DNA of 64,000 nucleotides, from positions 1,482-65,481 of the forward strand of contig CAZNIV010000003.1 in assembly GCA_964573235.1 (NCBI GenBank). The letters are read 5' to 3'. The notes beneath the pieces were generated by a model. It was given only the letters and a program-made list of their open reading frames with translations. It did no database searches and was not told the DNA's origin. Of this stretch, positions 7,403-57,019 are shown piece after piece. Position 1 is the first letter of the stretch. Each line of letters opens with the position of its first letter. The position numbers were made by a program, and so were the translations under genes. Source of the stretch: an uncultured Gammaproteobacteria bacterium. GTDB lineage: Bacteria; Patescibacteriota; Patescibacteriia; 2-01-FULL-39-33.

Positions 7403-8900
7403 ATTTTATATCACAACGCCAATTTATTATGTTAATGGCAGTCCACATATCGGGCATGCTTATACTACAATTATCGCGGATGTTTTAGCGCGTTATCATC
7501 GCTTGCTGGGTGATAAAGTTTTCTTTTTAACTGGTACCGATGAGCATGGCTCTAAAGTAGCTAAATCAGCCGAGATGGCAGGTAAAACTCCGTTAGAATT
7601 TTGTGATGAATATTCGGCTAAATTTCAATTGGCTTGGGAGGAATTAAATATTTCTCATAATCGCTTTATTCGTACTACCGAAGCAGATCATAAAAATGGC
7701 GTAGCGGTATTTTTGAACAAACTTAAAGCGAGTGGCGCGATCTATCAAGGAGAATATCAGGGTTTATATTGCAGTGGTTGTGAAAGATTTTTGACAGAAA
7801 AAGATTTGATTGACGGCAAGTGTCCTGATCATTTAAAAGAGCCGGAGGTGGTAAAAGAAAAAAATTATTTTTTTAATTTAAAAAAGTTTTTACCAGAAAT
7901 TGAACGTTTAATTGATACAAGAGAAATAAAAATCGTTCCAGAATCTTATCGTCGCGAAGTGTTAGGTTTTTTTAAGCAGAATTTAGATGATTTTTCTATT
8001 TCTCGGGAAAGTGTAAAGTGGGGTATAGAATTGCCTTTTGATAAAACGCAAGTGACCTATGTTTGGATTGAGGCGTTGCAAAATTATTTAACCGGCATTG
8101 GCTATGGTTATAATGATAAGCAATTTCAGGAATTTTGGCCGGCCGATGTACACTTAATGTCTAAGGATATTATTAAATTTCATACTATTTTTTGGCCCGC
8201 TCTTTTATTAGCGGTAGGAGAAAAGGTGCCTAAGCATATTTTTGTGCATGGATTTTTCACTATCGATGGACAAAAAATGGGCAAGTCGTTGGGTAATGTG
8301 ATTGACCCCGTGGCCTTGGCCGAACAATTCGGTTCCGATGTGGTGCGTTATTTATTGTTGTCACAGTTTCCTTTAGGTAGTGATGGAGATATTAAAGCAG
8401 CTAACTTTGCGTTGCAATATAATTCCGATTTAGCTAATGGTTTGGGTAATCTAGTTAGTCGTGTCGTGGCTATGAATGAAAAATATTTTGCTGGCGTGGT
8501 GCCGGTAGCTTCTAAGAAAGAATTAGTAACGGAGGTAAAAAATGTATGGCAGGAATATGAAACGGCCATGCAAGAGTTTGCGGTAGACAAGGCATTGGCG
8601 CAAATTCGCCATTTGAATAAAGTGTGTGATGAATTTGTTGATCAGCATAAGCCATGGGAATTGGCTAAGCAGGGGGATACCGAAGCGTTAAAGGAGGCGA
8701 TTTATGGCTTATTAGAAGGTATTAGAAATTTAGCGGTGATGTTATATCCATTTATGCCTGAAACGAGCGCTAGAATCTTAGAACAGTTTGGTTTTGCCGA
8801 TTTTACTAGTCGCAGTTTTAGTGAATTAAAAACTTGGGGCTTATTGTCGGCCGGTACGATTATTGTTAAGGCTGACGGTTTATTTCCCAGAATTAAATAA
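7395..8900 (+). CDS. metG: methionyl-tRNA synthetase (short form without C-terminal tRNA-binding domain)
   Basis: HIGH motif (PHIGHAYT), KMSKS motif (KMGKSLGN) and a Cys-rich Zn knuckle. I chose the ATG at 7395 (MSKFYITTPIYY) over the upstream in-frame ATG at 7371. Confidence 0.9.
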   Translation: MSKFYITTPIYYVNGSPHIGHAYTTIIADVLARYHRLLGDKVFFLTGTDEHGSKVAKSAEMAGKTPLEFCDEYSAKFQLAWEELNISHNRFIRTTEADHKNGVAVFLNKLKASGAIYQGEYQGLYCSGCERFLTEKDLIDGKCPDHLKEPEVVKEKNYFFNLKKFLPEIERLIDTREIKIVPESYRREVLGFFKQNLDDFSISRESVKWGIELPFDKTQVTYVWIEALQNYLTGIGYGYNDKQFQEFWPADVHLMSKDIIKFHTIFWPALLLAVGEKVPKHIFVHGFFTIDGQKMGKSLGNVIDPVALAEQFGSDVVRYLLLSQFPLGSDGDIKAANFALQYNSDLANGLGNLVSRVVAMNEKYFAGVVPVASKKELVTEVKNVWQEYETAMQEFAVDKALAQIRHLNKVCDEFVDQHKPWELAKQGDTEALKEAIYGLLEGIRNLAVMLYPFMPETSARILEQFGFADFTSRSFSELKTWGLLSAGTIIVKADGLFPRIK

Positions 8901-8906
8901 TATAAA

Positions 8907-9419
8907 ATGCTTTTTAATTTAACGGATGTCATTTTGCTAGTATTGATCGCTTCTTTTGGCGTAATTGGCTTTGCGTTCGGATTAATTAGGGTTATTGGTG
9001 CCTTAGTGGGCTTGGTGCTCGGTTCTTGGGTTGCTAGTGTATATTATTTATCTTTTGCCGTCTGGATCAATGAACATCTTTGGAATTTTTCTTCGGCGAC
9101 TAAGATTATTGCTTTTATTTTATTATTTGGCATTGCTAATCGCGTTATTACTTTTGGTTTTTATATTATTGGAAAGTTTTTTAATCTACTTTCGATTATT
9201 CCTTTTTTGGGCATGATTAATCGTATTACGGGTGCTATTTTAGGATTATTAGAGGGTATTTTGGTTTTGGGTTTAGTGGTTTATGTTTCTTTTAAATTTT
9301 CACAAGATATTACTTGGATTTTTTCGCAAATTAATGATTCAAAAATAGCAATGTGGTTAGTTTGGTTAACGGATAGGGTGGCCGCAACTTTCCCATTATT
9401 GTATAGTAAAATAAATTAG
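8907..9419 (+). CDS. CvpA-family membrane protein
   Basis: 170-aa four-TM protein with a CvpA-like hydrophobicity pattern. Confidence 0.55.
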   Translation: MLFNLTDVILLVLIASFGVIGFAFGLIRVIGALVGLVLGSWVASVYYLSFAVWINEHLWNFSSATKIIAFILLFGIANRVITFGFYIIGKFFNLLSIIPFLGMINRITGAILGLLEGILVLGLVVYVSFKFSQDITWIFSQINDSKIAMWLVWLTDRVAATFPLLYSKIN

Positions 9420-9420
9420 T

Positions 9421-10239
9421 ATGACATCACCTTTAATTGATACTCATGCCCACTTGAATCTGGCTGATTTTGATATTGATCGTGAGCGGATTATTACTCA
9501 AGCGCAAAGGGCTGATATGAAGATCGTAAATATTGGAGCTGATTTAGAATCATCTCGTGGAGCTTTAGTATTAGCAGAAAAGCATCAGGGCCTTTATGCT
9601 ACTATTGGTATTCACCCAGAAGTGGTGGGTGATTATCTGGGTCAAGAAGATAAGCTGGGCGCAGATTTATCAGGGTTGGCTAAATTAACGGGTATTAATC
9701 TAGTGGCTATTGGTGAAATTGGTTTAGATTATTTTAGAGCTAAAGATCAGAAGGTAGAAGTTAAAGAACTGCAGAAAAAAATATTATTGTATCAATTAGA
9801 CTTGGCTCTAGAAAAAAATTTGCCCGTAGTATTACATTGTCGAGCGAGTAATGGTAGTAATGAAGCTTATTCGGATTTATTAAATATTTTAGCCTTGCCA
9901 AAATACAATAGTCTCATTGGGGTGGTTCATTGTTTCGGTTCTACCATCGAAATGGCGAATAAGTTTATTGCCCTTGGTTTTTTAATTGGCGTAACCGGTA
10001 TCGTGACTTTTAAAAATAAATCTAAAGAATTACAGGAGTTAGTTAGACAAATACCTTTGGATAAATTATTAATGGAAACGGATTGTCCATATTTAGCACC
10101 GGAGCCTTATCGTGGTGGTCGCAATGAGCCACAATATGTTTTGGCTGTCGGTCAAAAAATTGCCGAAGTTAAACAGCTTTCGCTAGAGAGTGTAATAACG
10201 CAACTTAATTGCAATGCTCAAAAATTATTTGCCATTTAA
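9421..10239 (+). CDS. TatD-family metal-dependent hydrolase
   Basis: N-terminal IDTHAHL motif, conserved His/Glu/Asp ligands, ~270 aa. Confidence 0.85.
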   Translation: MTSPLIDTHAHLNLADFDIDRERIITQAQRADMKIVNIGADLESSRGALVLAEKHQGLYATIGIHPEVVGDYLGQEDKLGADLSGLAKLTGINLVAIGEIGLDYFRAKDQKVEVKELQKKILLYQLDLALEKNLPVVLHCRASNGSNEAYSDLLNILALPKYNSLIGVVHCFGSTIEMANKFIALGFLIGVTGIVTFKNKSKELQELVRQIPLDKLLMETDCPYLAPEPYRGGRNEPQYVLAVGQKIAEVKQLSLESVITQLNCNAQKLFAI

Positions 10240-23862: not shown

Positions 23863-25329
23863 TTATTTAACCTCTTCCCAAGAAATAATGGAATAATAAT
23901 CAGAAGCTAATGGAATGTATGGAGGGGGGTTGTAAAGTAAGTTGGTATCATAAATAATATTTCTGATTTGGTAGCCATTTCCATCAGTGTAGGCAAAGCC
24001 ATATCTCAAATTGGTGGCAATCATACCATAGAGGGTGATAGTGCTTCTGGTATCGTAAGCTTCGCATTGGGAATGATCATAGTAGTATCTTCCTACGCGG
24101 CCATTTTGGGCGATAAGAGCCGCGTCTATTTCTAGGTTGTCTTCGCTAACTAGACCGACATTAATATTGCCTTGGGCGATTAGGGCCATGGTATCTTGAC
24201 CGTCGTGGTTGGTGTATTTAATGTCGTTATTAATAATTATGTTGTTTTTATTTAGGTTATTATCAATAAAGCGTGCTGAAGCAATAGTTAAATGGGCGGT
24301 ATTGATAGTGCCATCAACCCAAATATTGTCTTCGGCAAAAATTAAGCCGTTGGTGGGAAAGGCAAGATTAGAGCTGATTATTGTTTCAGTTCCAATACTC
24401 CATTGCGACCAATTTTCTTGATCTGACTTATTAGCGCAAGCTCCTTGAACTTTATATTGTTTATTGACTTTATATAGATCATAAGTGTCATTGGTTTTTA
24501 AAACAATATGATAGCCTTCAACACCGGAATTGCCCAGATATTTGCCGGATGTTTGCGCTATCGTTTTCATATTCGATAAGTTTTGAGTGATGCCAGTAAA
24601 ATCAAAGGCAGGGACGGATATTTGGCGACCGCCTAAAAACACATCTGGACGATTAGGCAGAGAGTTGGGTGGAGCTTCAGCGGCAACATAATTATCAGTT
24701 ACTTGTGAATTGGGTGGCGTTGTAACATGAGTATGAACGCCAAGTTCCGATCCGCCGGTGTGATCGGGGTCATCATAGGAAGCTTTTGAGGAGGCGACTA
24801 AGTTGTGTGCTAAGCCATCAAAGCGCACGCCATTATTGACTTGAATTTGGCCAAAAACTTCCGTGCCTTCGCCGAAGCGCATCATTTCATCGGCAGCGAC
24901 AGCAAACCTAGCTAATGATGGTATAGCCATACGTACTTTAATTTTTCGATAGGTAGATGAACTAACGTCTACTCTTCCGGTAGAAATAATAGTAATAATA
25001 GTTGAACCAACGGTTGGTGGAGTAATATCTAAAGAAAATGTTCCTATTTTTTTATTATCACGGTCATAATAGGAGTGTACATAAGGGCCAGCGCTCTGCC
25101 CCCCATCTTTGTAGTCGGTGGGGTTATGGGCCAAGTGCCAACGATAATATTCAATACCAGCCTCAGCTATTTGAAACGCTTGCTCGCTATTATTTAGTCG
25201 TTTGGCAGAAGTAAATAATATAGAGAACCAACCAGATAAACTAAGCATAATAAAAGTTCCTAATGCAGTGAATACTAGAATAGTTAACAGGATGTAACCC
25301 CTTGATTTTTTTGTTTTCTGGTTTGGCAT
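23863..25329 (-). CDS. PilX-like pilus-associated protein
   Basis: N-terminal TM helix followed by a PilX_N-like segment, then a long secreted domain. Confidence 0.5.
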   Translation of the reverse strand: MPNQKTKKSRGYILLTILVFTALGTFIMLSLSGWFSILFTSAKRLNNSEQAFQIAEAGIEYYRWHLAHNPTDYKDGGQSAGPYVHSYYDRDNKKIGTFSLDITPPTVGSTIITIISTGRVDVSSSTYRKIKVRMAIPSLARFAVAADEMMRFGEGTEVFGQIQVNNGVRFDGLAHNLVASSKASYDDPDHTGGSELGVHTHVTTPPNSQVTDNYVAAEAPPNSLPNRPDVFLGGRQISVPAFDFTGITQNLSNMKTIAQTSGKYLGNSGVEGYHIVLKTNDTYDLYKVNKQYKVQGACANKSDQENWSQWSIGTETIISSNLAFPTNGLIFAEDNIWVDGTINTAHLTIASARFIDNNLNKNNIIINNDIKYTNHDGQDTMALIAQGNINVGLVSEDNLEIDAALIAQNGRVGRYYYDHSQCEAYDTRSTITLYGMIATNLRYGFAYTDGNGYQIRNIIYDTNLLYNPPPYIPLASDYYSIISWEEVK

Positions 25330-30750: not shown

Positions 30751-31890
30751 TTAGGCGATTTTTAAAGATTTTTTAGCGATTAAGTTTTGGTATTGGATAA
30801 TAGTTTTGTGAGCGATATCATCCCAATTATAATCTTTATCTACCATGATTTTGGCTTTTCTGGCCAAGTCAGTAATAAGGTCATGGTCAGTATCGGCTAA
30901 GACTAATTGTTTGGTTAAATCAGCTCCACTTTTATTTTTAAAAGATAAGCTGTAGTCGCCAGTAGCTTCTAGGTTTTCTGGAATATCACTAACAATGACT
31001 GGGATTTCATAAGCCATAGCTTCTAGTAGGGCGATAGATAAGCCCTCAGCTTCTGAAGGTTGCACGAATAAGTAAGCGTTGGTGAATAAGGTATTTAATT
31101 CATTACCGGATTGAGAGCCAGTAAAAATAATATTTGGATTATTTACAGCTAAACGGTGTAAGTAAGAAACATATTCATCAGTATTGGATCCGCCACCAAC
31201 AATGACTAATTTTTTATCGGTTTTAATTTTTTGGTAAGCATCAATTAAAGTATGAACACCTTTATGTTGTACTAGGCGAGAAACTAAAACAAAGTATTTT
31301 TGCTTCTCTAAGCCATATTTATTTAAAATAGCAATTTGATGGCTGGAATTTTTTGCTGGGCTAATATTAACACCATTAGGAATGTAAGTAGCTTCTCGGT
31401 TAAATTGGGTTTTGACATATTTTTGTAATCCCTTAGAAATGACAATGGTTTCATGAGGAAAGTGGCAAGCGGCCCATTCTCCCATGGCTAACATTAATTT
31501 AGCAAAGTGACCCCATTTTTGATGTTCTTTATCTTGGCAGTGAAAGGTAACAACGACTTTGGTTTTTGGCGCTAACAATCTAGGAATCCAAGATAATAAA
31601 GCGGGGCCAACGCCATGGTAATGAATGACATTATAATTTTGAAAGATGGCATGCAAAGAAGAGAATAGGGTATGAGAAATAGCGTCTAAATTTTTGGTGT
31701 TAATGGATGGGCAATAAATTAAATTAACATTTTTATATTCGCTGTGACGATTGCCGGTATAATGCTCGCGAGCATACACAGTAACCGATTCATGGGCTTG
31801 GGCTAAACGCACAGCTAACTCCTCGACATGTTTTTCAATGCCGCCTTGTTTAGTAGGGATGCCTTTTTGTCCAATGAATGCGATTTTCAT
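30751..31890 (-). CDS. glycosyltransferase family 4
   Basis: GT-B fold with the E-x7-E signature region (EGLSIALLEAMAYEIPVI). Confidence 0.8.
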   Translation of the reverse strand: MKIAFIGQKGIPTKQGGIEKHVEELAVRLAQAHESVTVYAREHYTGNRHSEYKNVNLIYCPSINTKNLDAISHTLFSSLHAIFQNYNVIHYHGVGPALLSWIPRLLAPKTKVVVTFHCQDKEHQKWGHFAKLMLAMGEWAACHFPHETIVISKGLQKYVKTQFNREATYIPNGVNISPAKNSSHQIAILNKYGLEKQKYFVLVSRLVQHKGVHTLIDAYQKIKTDKKLVIVGGGSNTDEYVSYLHRLAVNNPNIIFTGSQSGNELNTLFTNAYLFVQPSEAEGLSIALLEAMAYEIPVIVSDIPENLEATGDYSLSFKNKSGADLTKQLVLADTDHDLITDLARKAKIMVDKDYNWDDIAHKTIIQYQNLIAKKSLKIA

Positions 31891-32054
31891 ATATTTTTGG
31901 CTATTTGTTGTTGACTAATGATTATAGCACAATGTGATAATTCTGTCAAGTATTTAAGAAAAGTGAGAAATTTTGGAATTAAAGAAGCCCCGCGACCCTA
32001 GTGATTGCATTGGTTGCGTTCACTTTGGGTGGCGGGGCTGGAGGCGGTTGGGGT

Positions 32055-32552
32055 TCAGTTGATCGGAATATTTTCTTCCGCGTCACCGTCCTTGGCGGCG
32101 ACAAGTTTGGTGTCCTTGCCATTGCGGGTGACGGCGGTTTTTTTGGTGTTTAGGAACACCTTGCTGCCGTCCTTGAGGACGACGTAGATGTTACACACCG
32201 TTCCAGCTGGCAACTTGCTCAGGTCGTAACCAACGGCAGTCTTGCCGTCGTAGCTGAATCCTGCTCCCGTGATGGGGTCGGCGCTGACCAGATTACCGGC
32301 CTCGTCGAGTTTCGCGTTGCTTTCGCTGTGGCAACCGTAGGGCGCCGATTTCGACATGATGAGCACGCCGATCTTGGTGATCTGGTCGATGGCGACGGGC
32401 TTGATGAGCCCGACGACATTCCCATCCTTGACAGCGACGGCGACGTGGATACCATTGGCATCCTTGGTCACATCGGCATCGGCGGCCTGGGTGTTGATGG
32501 CGGACAGTGCGGTCAGGGCGACCGCGGCGAGGATTGCGATTGTCTTTTTCAT
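32055..32552 (-). CDS. secreted hypothetical protein encoded on high-GC foreign-looking island
   Basis: Start MKKTIAILAAVALTALSAINTQA-ADA, a signal peptide with an AxA cleavage site. It is preceded by AGGGAG 8 nt upstream, and the extra 22 codons in the track ORF are upstream of that. GC3-rich codon usage and two Cys residues. No family recognised. Confidence 0.6.
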   Translation of the reverse strand: MKKTIAILAAVALTALSAINTQAADADVTKDANGIHVAVAVKDGNVVGLIKPVAIDQITKIGVLIMSKSAPYGCHSESNAKLDEAGNLVSADPITGAGFSYDGKTAVGYDLSKLPAGTVCNIYVVLKDGSKVFLNTKKTAVTRNGKDTKLVAAKDGDAEENIPIN

Positions 32553-32793
32553 GGTAACTACTCCCTGTTGTTTTGAATACACACCACCGACAGTCGTTGC
32601 CGGCAGTAGGAACGACACCAGAACCAGGCACTGAAACTTTTTTCTCCTTTGTTTTTTTGTTTTTGTTGTATTGAAAGGTTCGAAGCTAATCGATTTGTCT
32701 AAAGCACTTTATCAGTACTCGACTAAGTATTGTATCAGATAAGTGTGTATTTGTCAATAGTTAAATGATTAAAATCCCTTAGATTAGCTAAAT

Positions 32794-34482
32794 TTATCTA
32801 ATTTTACCATTAATTAGCCCATTTTTATCTAAAGCGGCATCAGTATTAATTGGTTTGGTGCTATAAGTTAAGGTTTCACCAGTAAGGGTGTCTTGGGCGC
32901 TAGCGGTAGTGGTGTTGATGATTTTTCCAACCATTCCGCCTTGGTCGGCAGTAGGAGTAAACTCTACTTCAAAGGCGCAAGCAATGCTAGGATAATTAGC
33001 ACTAGGGGCATTCACGGTATCAACATTCCAAGTGATTAAGTTATTTTTGGTATCGTAATGAACTCCACCATTAGCGGTAGTAGTGTATTGCCCGGTCCAG
33101 CGGACATTTTGACCAAGAGAAGTTTTAACTTGTAAATCTCTTAGATCATTTATATTGCTAGTAACTTGCATGGCTACCCAATAGCGAGTGGCCTCGCCGA
33201 TTTTCGGCGGTAATGGGCCAAAGCCAATTTGGTCACCTTCGGCGGTGAAGTATTTTAGGGTCACTGGCAAGGTCATTAAAGTGTTGATTTTTTGATTGAT
33301 AACATCAGCTGATTGAAAGCCAATATTGCCATCTGGCATAGTGTAATTTAGTTGGGTGGCTATGTTAAGAAAATTATTTTTTTGTTCACCATCCTTAAGA
33401 TTAATAGAAAAGGGAATGACTATAGACGCTTCTGGATTTAGACTGGCTAAGGCTAAAGTATTAGTGCGATCAAATTTAATGTTAGTGTCGCCTAATAGAT
33501 TATCCTCAGTAATATTAAGGGTGATATTTTTGACGGTAAAGTTTTCATGATTAATAATGGTGGCCAAATAAGAATTAACGCCAAAATTGGCATTTGTACT
33601 ATTGGCTTTAATGACTAAATCAATCTTAGATTTTTTAAAATTAATGGTAATGTTATTTTCAGCTAATTGATTTGAGCTATTGTCGGTAGTAATTTGGATC
33701 TTAAAAGAGTTGAGGGTTTTATTAATATTGTTTTTTACAGTTTTGGCAACAATCGTGCCAGTTAAACTTTGCTTAGGGTTTAGGGTAATGTTTTTTATGG
33801 GCAAAGTAGAAGAAGTGATGATTAAATTATTAGATAATAAATTATGACTCAGGGATAAGTTATTAATCGTGTTGTCACTTTTATTTTCAAGCGTAACATA
33901 GAAGGTAACTGGTTGACCGGCAAAAGCCCAGTCGGTAGCCTTTATGGTTAGAGACAATGGAGAGTCGCTGATATTTATTAGCTGGTTAATTTTTTTGGTA
34001 CGCTTGGCAGTATTGCCCTCGGGGATGAAAGTTAGTATTGAGTAAATTTGTTGTTCAGTTTTTGGCATCGCCCAAAACTTGCCGGAAAGGTTAATGGCGC
34101 CCTTGGCATTAATATCTAAGTCACCTAAGTTAAAGGTGATAGTTTTTTGGTCAAATTTTTGACTTGGAGATCCGCCAATTAATTCAAAGCTGTTAGGTAG
34201 ATTAAAAGTTAGTGTGGCTTGATTAAGTTGTTTACCTGATTTATTTTCGTAAGAAAAAATAAGATTAGTAACATCACCAGCAACAGTAGATTGATTTTGA
34301 TTTTCAGCGATTAAATCAATTTTATTTTCAATACGAAAGGCCACTTTATCTAAATGGCTATATAAACTAAGTGCCAATAAAATACCGACTAAAAAAAGCA
34401 AGAAAAAATTAAATACCAATGGGACCTTTTTTGTTTCAAATCGGCTGGCCGCAAAATCTTTTAGGAGTTTTTTTAGTTTCAT
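32794..34482 (-). CDS. surface protein with DUF11-like repeats
   Basis: N-terminal TM helix followed by repeated beta-rich segments that are N/T-rich. Confidence 0.4.
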   Translation of the reverse strand: MKLKKLLKDFAASRFETKKVPLVFNFFLLFLVGILLALSLYSHLDKVAFRIENKIDLIAENQNQSTVAGDVTNLIFSYENKSGKQLNQATLTFNLPNSFELIGGSPSQKFDQKTITFNLGDLDINAKGAINLSGKFWAMPKTEQQIYSILTFIPEGNTAKRTKKINQLINISDSPLSLTIKATDWAFAGQPVTFYVTLENKSDNTINNLSLSHNLLSNNLIITSSTLPIKNITLNPKQSLTGTIVAKTVKNNINKTLNSFKIQITTDNSSNQLAENNITINFKKSKIDLVIKANSTNANFGVNSYLATIINHENFTVKNITLNITEDNLLGDTNIKFDRTNTLALASLNPEASIVIPFSINLKDGEQKNNFLNIATQLNYTMPDGNIGFQSADVINQKINTLMTLPVTLKYFTAEGDQIGFGPLPPKIGEATRYWVAMQVTSNINDLRDLQVKTSLGQNVRWTGQYTTTANGGVHYDTKNNLITWNVDTVNAPSANYPSIACAFEVEFTPTADQGGMVGKIINTTTASAQDTLTGETLTYSTKPINTDAALDKNGLINGKIR

Positions 34483-56058: not shown

Positions 56059-56583
56059 ATGCCAAAGACTAAGCAGCAAAAACAAGATGTTGTCGCTGAG
56101 TTGAACGACAATGTTAAAAAGATGAAGTCTGCGGTGTTCATCAACTTCGCCAATACATCTGTTAAAGATGTAACCGAGTTGAGAAACAATTGCCGCAAGG
56201 AAAATGTTGAATACGTGGTGGCTAAAAAGACATTGCTTAAGAAGGCTTTGATCGATAATGGTTATACTATCGCTCAAGACCGCGAATTATCAGGTGAAAT
56301 CGCCTCAGTGTTCGCTCTTAAGGATGAAGTTTCTGCCGCTAGAGTAATTAACGATTTTACCAAGGAACACAAGACAATTAAGATCGTAGCCGGTATCTTG
56401 GAAGGAAAATTTGTAGAAGTTGATCAGGTGATCGCTTTGGCAAAATTACCAAGCAAGCAAGAACTTATCGCCAAGGTGGTTGGTTCTATCGCCGCTCCAC
56501 TTTCTGGTATGGTCAATGTGTTGCAGGGCAATTTACGCAATTTCGTTTACGCTTTGAGTGCCATTAGGGATAAAAAAGCTTAA
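56059..56583 (+). CDS. rplJ: 50S ribosomal protein L10
   Basis: L10 family sequence and synteny with rplL. Confidence 0.9.
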   Translation: MPKTKQQKQDVVAELNDNVKKMKSAVFINFANTSVKDVTELRNNCRKENVEYVVAKKTLLKKALIDNGYTIAQDRELSGEIASVFALKDEVSAARVINDFTKEHKTIKIVAGILEGKFVEVDQVIALAKLPSKQELIAKVVGSIAAPLSGMVNVLQGNLRNFVYALSAIRDKKA

Positions 56584-56623
56584 CAACAACTAAATTAAAT
56601 AAAAAATTATTAAATCAAAAATT

Positions 56624-57019
56624 ATGTCAGAACAAAATGTAACCGTTCCAGAAAAGTTTAAAGCTTTAGTGGAACAAATCGAAAATCTTAGCGTTTTGGA
56701 TTTAGCCGAATTGGTTAAAGTATTGGAATCTAAGTTTGGCGTTTCTGCTGCTGCTCCTGTAGCTGCTGCTGCCGCTGCTCCAGCTGCTGCCGCTGCTGAA
56801 GAAAAGACTTCTTTCAATGTAGAGTTGACTTCTTCTGGCGAAAGCAAAATTAACGTTATCAAAGCCGTTAGAACCGTTGTTGCTGAATTAGGCTTAAAGG
56901 AAGCTAAGGATTTAGTTGATGGCGCTCCAAAGATGGTGAAAGAAAACGTTACTAAGGAAGAAGCTGAAAAGATTAAAAAAGCTTTAGAAGAAGCTGGTGC
57001 AAAGGTTACTTTGAAATAA
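56624..57019 (+). CDS. rplL: 50S ribosomal protein L7/L12
   Basis: Ala-rich hinge and a conserved C-terminal domain ([12 protein letters not shown]...). Confidence 0.9.

Follow-up and report, generated by a model that had tools for sequence, protein, structure and literature searches.

The window analysed here, a 64-kb stretch of DNA, carries on its minus strand a gene cluster that encodes, in the order of transcription, a Wzy-like ligase, a GT4 glycosyltransferase (GT4b), a GHL15/FG-GAP protein and a 562-aa Ig-repeat protein, followed by a GC-rich island and then by GT4a, pilB, pilC, pilin-like genes and pilM (Table 1). Judged by its gene sequences, the host is a low-GC Buchananbacteria-like Patescibacterium; the PilB protein of the window is 67-73 % identical to PilB of metagenome-assembled genomes of Patescibacteria and Candidatus Buchananbacteria. 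Related genomes keep this arrangement (Wzy, GT4b, GHL15/FG-GAP, Ig gene, slot, GT4a, pilB, pilC), where "slot" denotes the place that is filled by the island in the window. In the databases the identity of GT4a falls from 100 % straight to about 62-63 %, and across this step from 100 % to 63 % no nearly identical strain in which the site is unoccupied turned up. In the original prediction the island was placed between a GT4 gene and a DUF11-like gene. Pfam supports the former assignment, but the gene at 32794-34482 gives instead a weak Ig-like match, to Transglut_C (7e-5).

Table 1. Features of the GC-rich island and its immediate surroundings (positions in the 64-kb window)
Feature	Position	Strand	Basis or remark
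GT4 glycosyltransferase (GT4a), downstream flank, followed by pilB and pilC	30751..31890	-	Pfam
Promoter-like TTGACA-17-TATAAT, perfect, for the GT4 gene	31921..31949	-	Island ends 35 nt upstream
GC-rich island, a single expression unit minus promoter	31984..32640	.	Composition and sequence
Terminator-like hairpin and U-rich tract, 3' boundary of the island	31986..32039	-	RNA fold, repeat search
CDS, 165-aa ORFan, predicted secreted protein	32055..32552	-	ORF, GC pattern, codon composition
Predicted signal-peptide coding part, MKKTIAILAAVALTALSAINTQA before AD	32484..32552	-	n/h/c-region rule, -3/-1 rule
Shine-Dalgarno (SD) sequence AGGGAG	32561..32566	-	8 nt before ATG
GC-rich 5' leader hairpin, about 11 bp	32582..32609	-	Kept in centroid fold
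Orphan Shine-Dalgarno sequence AAAGGAG	32644..32650	-	In the AT-rich leader; GC jump 7 nt further on; no usable start codon behind
Promoter-like TTGACA-17-TACAAT, 11/12 matches, TG-extended	32729..32757	-	AT-rich spacer upstream of the island
562-aa Ig-repeat surface protein, upstream flank, host-type composition	32794..34482	-	Pfam, composition

By exact count the GC content of the island, which is 657 bases long, is 57.2 %, compared with 36.0 % for the remainder of the window. Sliding windows of 657 nt have a mean GC content of 0.362 (sd 0.033), the second-highest value being 0.446. In 20-nt windows the GC content goes from 0.30 to 0.60 over positions 31970-31999 at the left edge and from 0.45 to 0.30 over positions 32620-32649 at the right one, and the shift takes about 10-20 nt at each end. 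The tetranucleotide distance of the island to the window is 0.78 as against 0.37 ± 0.05, which places it 8 sd over the mean. The non-coding ends of the island are GC-rich too (0.50 at the 5' side and 0.63 at the 3' side).

The single gene of the island has a GC content of 0.576, with GC1/2/3 of 0.56/0.41/0.76, whereas the 54 other ORFs of the window average 0.44/0.33/0.31 with a GC3 of 0.31 ± 0.04; the corresponding GC3 z-score is 12. Its third positions are dominated by C (C3 0.54, G3 0.22). The high GC content and sharp edges of the original prediction, its GC3-biased minus-strand gene, and the anomaly in GC and codon statistics for which it proposed a check all hold on exact computation. 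The other ORFs within the island, previously dismissed as artefacts of GC composition, have out-of-frame GC patterns and for this reason are treated as artefacts here as well. A native gene adapted in its codons to high expression was also considered and rejected: at four-fold sites the island gene is C-dominant (0.56), whereas the host ribosomal-protein genes rplJ and rplL are T-dominant, and since the preferences differ in this way, translational selection in the host is not the cause of the GC richness.

The translated N-terminus agrees with the one given originally. It has the structure of a signal peptide, with MKK followed by TIAILAAVALTALSAI and NTQA, a cleavage point and AD, in accordance with the requirements of SPase I; the call is a rule-based reading of the n-, h- and c-regions and of the small residues at positions -3 and -1. 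The product is thus predicted to be a Sec-type secreted protein. The signal peptide had been described as Proteobacteria-style; a signal peptide it does appear to be, but the style is not specific to Proteobacteria, being shared by the GT4-proximal slot genes of related Patescibacteria. Neither a lipobox L-x-[GA]-C nor a pilin N-methylation motif was found in the protein, and the first of its two cysteines, whose number had been correctly anticipated, is residue 74 (Cys74 and Cys120). The mature protein (residues 24-165, 142 aa, 14.7 kDa, pI 6.1) is rich in Ala, Val, Gly, Lys and Asp and contains 15 Lys and 1 Arg; in the island protein these two residues account for 10.3 % and 0.6 %, respectively. 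Single-sequence AlphaFold predictions suggest an all-beta protein, in models of low confidence (pLDDT 46 for the full and 47 for the mature sequence).

The gene is flanked by a set of expression signals. The ribosome-binding site was found again at the distance from the start codon noted originally, and a short hairpin precedes it (Table 1); similar small hairpins sit directly 5' of the SD sequence in the slot genes of relatives. The 8-bp inverted repeat described earlier at the left boundary is real but longer than stated, with 13-nt arms (31986-31998 and 32027-32039) that are 92 % complementary. As minus-strand RNA it folds into a hairpin of -32.4 kcal/mol (z = -5.9), which begins 15 nt past the stop codon. 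Behind the hairpin comes UUCUUUAAUU, a U-rich tract; because of this position and of the tract, the hairpin looks like an intrinsic terminator. At the opposite end of the island, the only ORF starting near the orphan AAAGGAG begins with GTG at 32631 and has an out-of-frame GC pattern. We read this orphan SD as the probable remnant of a previous occupant of the slot that lost its coding part to replacement. The extended promoter-like sequence in the upstream spacer is a candidate promoter for the island gene. The perfect promoter-like sequence ahead of GT4a has a counterpart in the related locus L124, where a TTGACA...tgtgcTATAAT arrangement likewise lies upstream of the GT4 gene; of the AT-rich spacers on either side of the island, relatives conserve only the GT4a promoter region.

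Such a break in composition could in principle be produced by an assembly chimera or by a contaminating fragment from a GC-rich organism, both of which the original prediction had listed as options and for which the compositional discontinuity is the sole support. However, five other, independent assemblies (ERZ27300137, ERZ27300010, ERZ27300082 and ERZ27300065 of ENA, and JGI 3300021605) have contigs that align over the junctions with 99.9-100 % identity to the window. One contig (L003, window positions 31915-32874) covers both junctions; the right junction is also covered by L001 (31947-33798, with 37 nt at the left junction) and L002 (31995-33437), and the left one by L120 (30455-32190) and L121 (30706-32354). 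Both junctions are reproduced at 100 % identity in other assemblies; three short contigs encode the exact island protein, and another two encode the adjacent GT4 protein. With the contig of the window itself, six assemblies from different samples have identical joins on both sides. The genes on both flanks belong to the same genome and continue one syntenic operon in conserved order, and contigs of 240-700 kb have analogous GC-rich blocks at the corresponding place. Because other assemblies, as assembled contigs rather than reads, reproduce both joins, chimera and contamination are effectively excluded as explanations, and we assign them a practically negligible probability.

The homology search proposed for the product was carried out and pointed to no donor taxon. 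The 165-aa protein matched only itself in a word-indexed search of 5.8 billion proteins, and a phmmer run against 1.84 billion representatives (15 billion proteins clustered) found no credible homologue. The four weak phmmer matches (P0002-P0005, E-values 2e-7 to 3e-4) are mutually unrelated: a phage-like repeat protein, a DUF4397 protein, a small protein aligned only with residues 1-83, that is, the N-terminus with the signal peptide, and a MucBP adhesin. As three of them are unrelated repeat proteins and the fourth alignment is limited to this region, all four were judged spurious. There was no match in Pfam, NCBIfam, PHROGs or the PDB sequences, nor by tblastn against plasmids and phages or among viral contigs. 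The same insertion was also sought in related genomes, as had been suggested, and a homologue of the island gene was present in none of 116 related loci. BLASTP, tblastn and phmmer found no similarity between the island protein and the slot proteins of any relative. A profile built from the GT4a-proximal ones aligned with the signal peptide of the island protein alone, and no Ig-like or InlB B-repeat modules shared with other slot proteins were detected in it.

Although its sequence is not shared, the location of the island is. We defined a GC-rich block as a segment of at least 600 nt with a GC content at least 0.10 above that of GT4a, within 3 kb upstream of GT4a, and compared a near set of 18 non-redundant loci (GT4a identity of at least 55 %) with a more distant set of 49 loci. 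Such a block is present in 14 of the 18 near loci as opposed to 4 of the 49 distant ones (Fisher p = 7e-8). The remaining four near loci have a GC excess of +0.08 to +0.09; one of them, L005, has an empty slot, with the Ig-gene stop codon, a terminator, a promoter and GT4a all inside 118 nt. In relatives the slot lies between the Ig-repeat surface gene and GT4-pilB-pilC and contains one to three GC-rich genes (GC 0.48-0.65, GC3 0.46-0.87) in hosts with a GC content of 0.28-0.50. All 26 slot proteins examined have a signal peptide, which is of the lipobox type in 19 (L-x-G-C, usually then Pro) and of the SPase-I type in seven; in multi-gene slots the GT4a-proximal gene is of the SPase-I type, as in the window. 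Their Pfam domains (Ig_3/I-set, Flg_new_2 / InlB B-repeat, Bact_surface_Ig-like (DUF5011), TSP3 and PASTA) are adhesin-type modules distributed as a mosaic among relatives.

The slot genes also share a layout for expression. Of 25 slot genes, 21 have an SD sequence, versus 22 of 270 native genes (p = 1e-16); the latter count includes every possible start up to codon 40 and drops to 7 of 270 when only the first start is considered. In the window itself no native gene has one, rplJ and rplL included. A typical unit in relatives consists of a GC-rich leader with a small hairpin, a strong SD sequence, the ORF and, at its end, a GC-rich hairpin followed by a T run. Terminal hairpins of this kind, comparable to that of the window, are present in all slot genes of relatives, and the units are separated by AT-rich spacers with TTGACA-type promoters. 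The island of the window conforms to this description in its location between the Ig-repeat gene and GT4a-pilB, its GC content well above that of the host, its SD sequence, its hairpin terminator and its predicted export signal. With no sequence similarity found, its assignment to the class is based on position, composition, and expression and export signals. We therefore consider it probable that the island is one occupant of a variable surface-protein slot found throughout the clade rather than a lone transfer. A search of the literature found no report of such a pattern of GC-rich, SD-bearing slots.

A single recent and unrelated transfer from a high-GC donor, for instance a Proteobacterium or the host of the bacterium, that landed by chance in an intergenic spacer is the explanation closest to the horizontal acquisition originally proposed. 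Genes acquired horizontally are classically recognized by their GC content and codon usage, which, according to the amelioration model, adjust to the new genome with time. By these standards the island gene is a plausible candidate: it has a sharp break in GC content and codon usage, a composition that shows no adjustment towards that of the host, its own ribosome-binding site and terminator, and a patchy occurrence, being absent from the same site in relatives and from all 116 related loci. Its GC1/2/3 values fit a typical gene of a genome of roughly 57 % GC. On the other hand, no donor lineage or homologue was found among 15 billion proteins, in which GC-rich free-living bacteria are well sampled, and signatures of mobility were likewise missing, with no integrase or transposase Pfam domains among ten neighbouring genes. 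In GC-rich Proteobacteria C3 and G3 are nearly equal, whereas in the island gene C3 greatly exceeds G3, as it does in the slot genes of relatives and in the host; the proportions of Lys and Arg are also atypical for GC-rich proteomes. Finally, the gene sits precisely in the clade-wide slot, which is GC-rich in relatives as well, and one orthologous pair of slot genes retains its GC excess over a divergence like that of the flanks. Horizontal acquisition thus remains compatible with the composition and with the gene's own SD and terminator, but the event is not isolated, and the recurrence of GC-rich genes in the same slot across the clade shifts the reading from one recent transfer, which we regard as unlikely, to the occupant of a recurrent slot.

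Comparison of related loci reveals both rapid turnover and persistence of slot genes. Between L122 and L124 the flanking genes are 89 % identical and the slot proteins 47 %; between L008 and L010, with PilB 92 % identical, the GT4a-proximal slot proteins have no BLASTP match to each other. By contrast, slot-protein identity between L045 and L122 reaches 76 %, close to the 74 % of the adjacent flanking gene. At four-fold sites the slot genes of this pair have a GC content of 0.65 and 0.84, compared with 0.11-0.19 and 0.43-0.61 in the flanks. The four-fold-site identity is similar in slot and flanks, at 0.55 for the slot gene and 0.40 for the adjacent flank gene (0.37-0.51 in flank comparisons of L045 with L124). 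This one pair suggests long residence with the GC content retained, not recent import. As its slot genes keep their GC excess, such an excess can outlast divergence accompanied by a strong shift in host composition; its persistence therefore implies either that a GC-rich pool supplies genes continually or that some gene-specific force maintains GC. In addition, bacteria other than Patescibacteria have modules 54-67 % identical to the DUF5011 module of the L045 slot protein, a hint that individual modules may pass between phyla.

If such a force existed, the island gene could be a long-resident native gene, its GC content kept high, as in all slot genes, by GC-biased gene conversion in a hyper-recombining family of surface proteins or by selection for GC-rich, structured, stable, SD-dependent mRNAs. 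The L045 and L122 orthologues, which diverge in step with their flanks, would agree with this, as would the structured leaders and strong terminators; the mosaicism of the slot genes implies that they recombine often, and elevated GC3 has been reported for recombining bacterial genes (Lassalle et al. 2015, PMC4450053). However, the effects reported for biased gene conversion in bacteria are small beside a GC3 excess of +0.45, and the window gene has no orthologue from which a residence time could be demonstrated. The five other assemblies are identical in the island, so that across the six assemblies of the window's population no within-population variation or local hypervariation was seen, and the complete replacement of slot genes among close relatives points to import, not to evolution in place. 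On balance, native origin under a gene-specific force seems to us doubtful, somewhat more so than a single transfer.

It is also conceivable, if very improbable, that the slot genes form a dedicated class that matches the host or partner organism of these bacteria in GC content, SD sequences, sigma-70-type promoters and Gram-negative-style export signals. Continual capture of genes from that host, e.g. through pilus- or competence-mediated DNA uptake, followed by their use as surface mimics or adhesins would fit such a class; so would a more radical scenario, in which the slot genes are built for expression in the host cell after a T-DNA-like transfer.

Several known systems resemble the slot in part. 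Replacement, or flexible, genomic islets for cell-surface structures combine a conserved context with variable cargo, and the slot is like them in its conserved flanks, its variable cargo of exposed-surface proteins, the non-homology of this cargo in close relatives and the occasional empty site. It differs in that the cargo amounts to only one to three small genes, is GC-richer than the genome, whereas islet cargo is usually poorer, and carries SD sequences in genomes otherwise devoid of them; nor is there an integrase or tRNA gene adjacent to the slot (no tRNA gene was found in the entire 64-kb window). The vls locus of Borrelia, a GC-rich antigenic-variation locus in an AT-rich genome, is similar in that surface (lipo)protein genes far GC-richer than the genome diversify as recombination-driven mosaics. 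Unlike vls, the 64-kb window yielded no array of silent cassettes or internal repeats, the protein encoded in it is not a lipoprotein, and variation within the population was not seen.

Like an integron gene cassette, the island is a single-ORF unit that ends in a hairpin and is inserted at a fixed position behind a resident promoter. This assignment was rejected, since the 31986-32039 hairpin lacks R''/R' core sites (RYYYAAC ... GTTRRRY) and, more generally, the attC cores R''/L'' and L'/R', the boundaries contain no GTTRRRY, the operon has no integrase, and there is one hairpin only. A transposon or MITE was likewise dropped, because neither terminal inverted repeats nor a target duplication were found at the island boundaries, and direct repeats were absent there too. 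Rfam gave nothing at the gathering threshold in the whole window and nothing at E ≤ 1 in the island. With the host-attachment genes of Patescibacteria that are linked to type IV pili the island gene has in common its neighbourhood, from pilM to pilB, pilC and the pilins, and its predicted extracellular location; in contrast to such genes, its product has no pilin N-methylation motif. In Saccharibacteria, pili are reported to drive episymbiosis (PMC9894109, PMC12206443).

The above analysis favours, as the probable explanation, genuine Buchananbacteria-like DNA in which a compact, self-contained expression unit of foreign style fills a variable slot next to GT4-pilB-pilC, the genes of a type IV pilus operon, and would have replaced an earlier occupant. 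The unit consists of a structured GC-rich leader, a strong SD sequence, the 165-codon ORF and a hairpin terminator, and is located downstream of a sigma-70-like promoter of host type. The slot genes are mosaic and are exchanged among close relatives, and the window gene would have arrived by displacing a previous gene from within an AT-rich frame that stayed in place; displacement is suggested by the orphan SD, which sits exactly at the right junction. The source would be a GC-richer, SD-using gene pool. Since no donor was found in the databases searched, and no recombinase, att site or target duplication among the ten neighbouring genes and at the island boundaries, the mechanism of replacement is one that we infer. 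Once exported by the Sec pathway and cleaved after TQA, the product would act at the cell surface alongside pili and surface glycans, where it may contact the host or partner cell.

Patescibacteria live attached to other microbes, and the determinants of host recognition are largely unknown. A slot beside the pilus operon, filled by fast-changing secreted proteins and marked by GC content and SD sequences, may provide a simple genomic handle for candidate host-interaction genes throughout a clade. It also poses an evolutionary puzzle, as these genes lie 20-35 GC points above genomes that are under strong AT pressure. In practical terms, composition-based cleaning of metagenome-assembled genomes would wrongly throw out such segments as contamination.

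Shine-Dalgarno sites are almost entirely absent from the native genes of this Patescibacteria clade, that is, from the host-type genes outside the slot. Among the window ORFs and 17 related loci, a Shine-Dalgarno sequence was found at the first start codon in 7 of 270 native genes, and the upstream regions of native genes in this clade are plain A/T-rich sequence; rplJ and rplL (window 56059-57019) are examples of native genes lacking such a site. In the same set, including all ORFs of the window, GGAG-type sites are confined to slot genes, the GC-rich secreted-protein genes in the variable position between the Ig-repeat surface-protein gene and GT4a-pilB-pilC (GT4a being a glycosyltransferase gene).

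Codon usage across the window demonstrated strong avoidance of G-ending codons (G3 = 0.08) and fairly frequent C-ending codons (C3 = 0.25), with GCC accounting for 50% of Ala codons and GGC for 48% of Gly codons. This asymmetry is unusual for a genome with 36% GC. In GC content, the stretch 24511-25167 (44.6% GC) ranks second in the window; it is enclosed in a pilus-operon ORF whose 488-aa product has no Pfam match. In positions 1-64000 of the window, neither tRNA genes nor Rfam families at the gathering threshold were detected.

The palindromic motif (T-run)G-Y-CTAAATTTAG-A recurs directly 3' of the slot-gene terminators in related loci, and also 3' of the Ig-repeat gene's stop codon, where the window copy reads ATAAATTTAG. 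The genomes carrying it are too diverged for intergenic alignment, and across the whole window the motif is not enriched relative to chance expectation. Its possible roles are those of a regulator site, a promoter UP element, or a recombination boundary. In the L124 locus, two GC-rich blocks without a credible ORF, both with counterparts in L125, separate the slot gene from GT4a; they share the 17-mer GCACTTTGCGGTGGCCA, and each is closed by a terminator-like hairpin followed by a T run. A search of the two L124 blocks against Rfam gave no match above noise; they may represent small RNAs or decayed slot genes.

Coordinates of features in the window and in contigs from other assemblies (L-numbers)
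Feature	Position	Strand	Remark
Pilus-operon ORF	window 23863-25329	minus	encloses 24511-25167
Palindromic motif, window copy	window 32785-32800		at stop codon of Ig-repeat gene
Palindromic motif, example sites	L041:5046; L019:7866; L051:8464, 9879; L010:2947, 5486; L124:9643
GC-rich block 1	L124:9380-9640
GC-rich block 2	L124:9850-10230
Raised-GC secreted-protein genes	L070:4635-5213; L117:4814-5356; L065:4782-5297; L106:4553-5308		distant relatives
Large GC-rich blocks	L091:1882-9759; L066/L067 at about 7900-9800		distant relatives

Several third-party-assembled MAG contigs (L005, L006, L013, L014, L020, L022-L024, and others) are titled "uncultured Gammaproteobacteria bacterium". Their pilB/GT4a gene order is of the Patescibacteria type and they are 55-74% identical to the PilB of the window; these titles look like taxonomic mislabels. 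The ENA contigs L001 and L003, which are MEGAHIT assemblies near-identical to the window, carry the Nextera transposase adapter (GTGTATAAGAGACAG / CTGTCTCTTATACACATCT) at both ends and at the 5' end, respectively, and therefore the reads were not adapter-trimmed before assembly.

In L005, whose GT4a is 63% identical to that of the window, the slot is empty (L005:4145-4264): downstream of the Ig-repeat gene lie a terminator hairpin and then the GT4a promoter, all within 118 nt. Relatives that are more distant, with a host GC3 of about 0.3, possess, elsewhere in the same glycan cluster, small genes of raised GC (170-250 aa, GC3 about 0.48) with secreted products; those of L070 and L117 are 56% identical to each other, and none of the four is similar to the protein of the window. 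Finally, a few distant relatives have large GC-rich blocks upstream of GT4a (GC 0.60-0.65, GC3 up to 0.90). Because these blocks encode signal-peptide proteins or lipoproteins, the GC-rich slot phenomenon is not strictly confined to the close clade.
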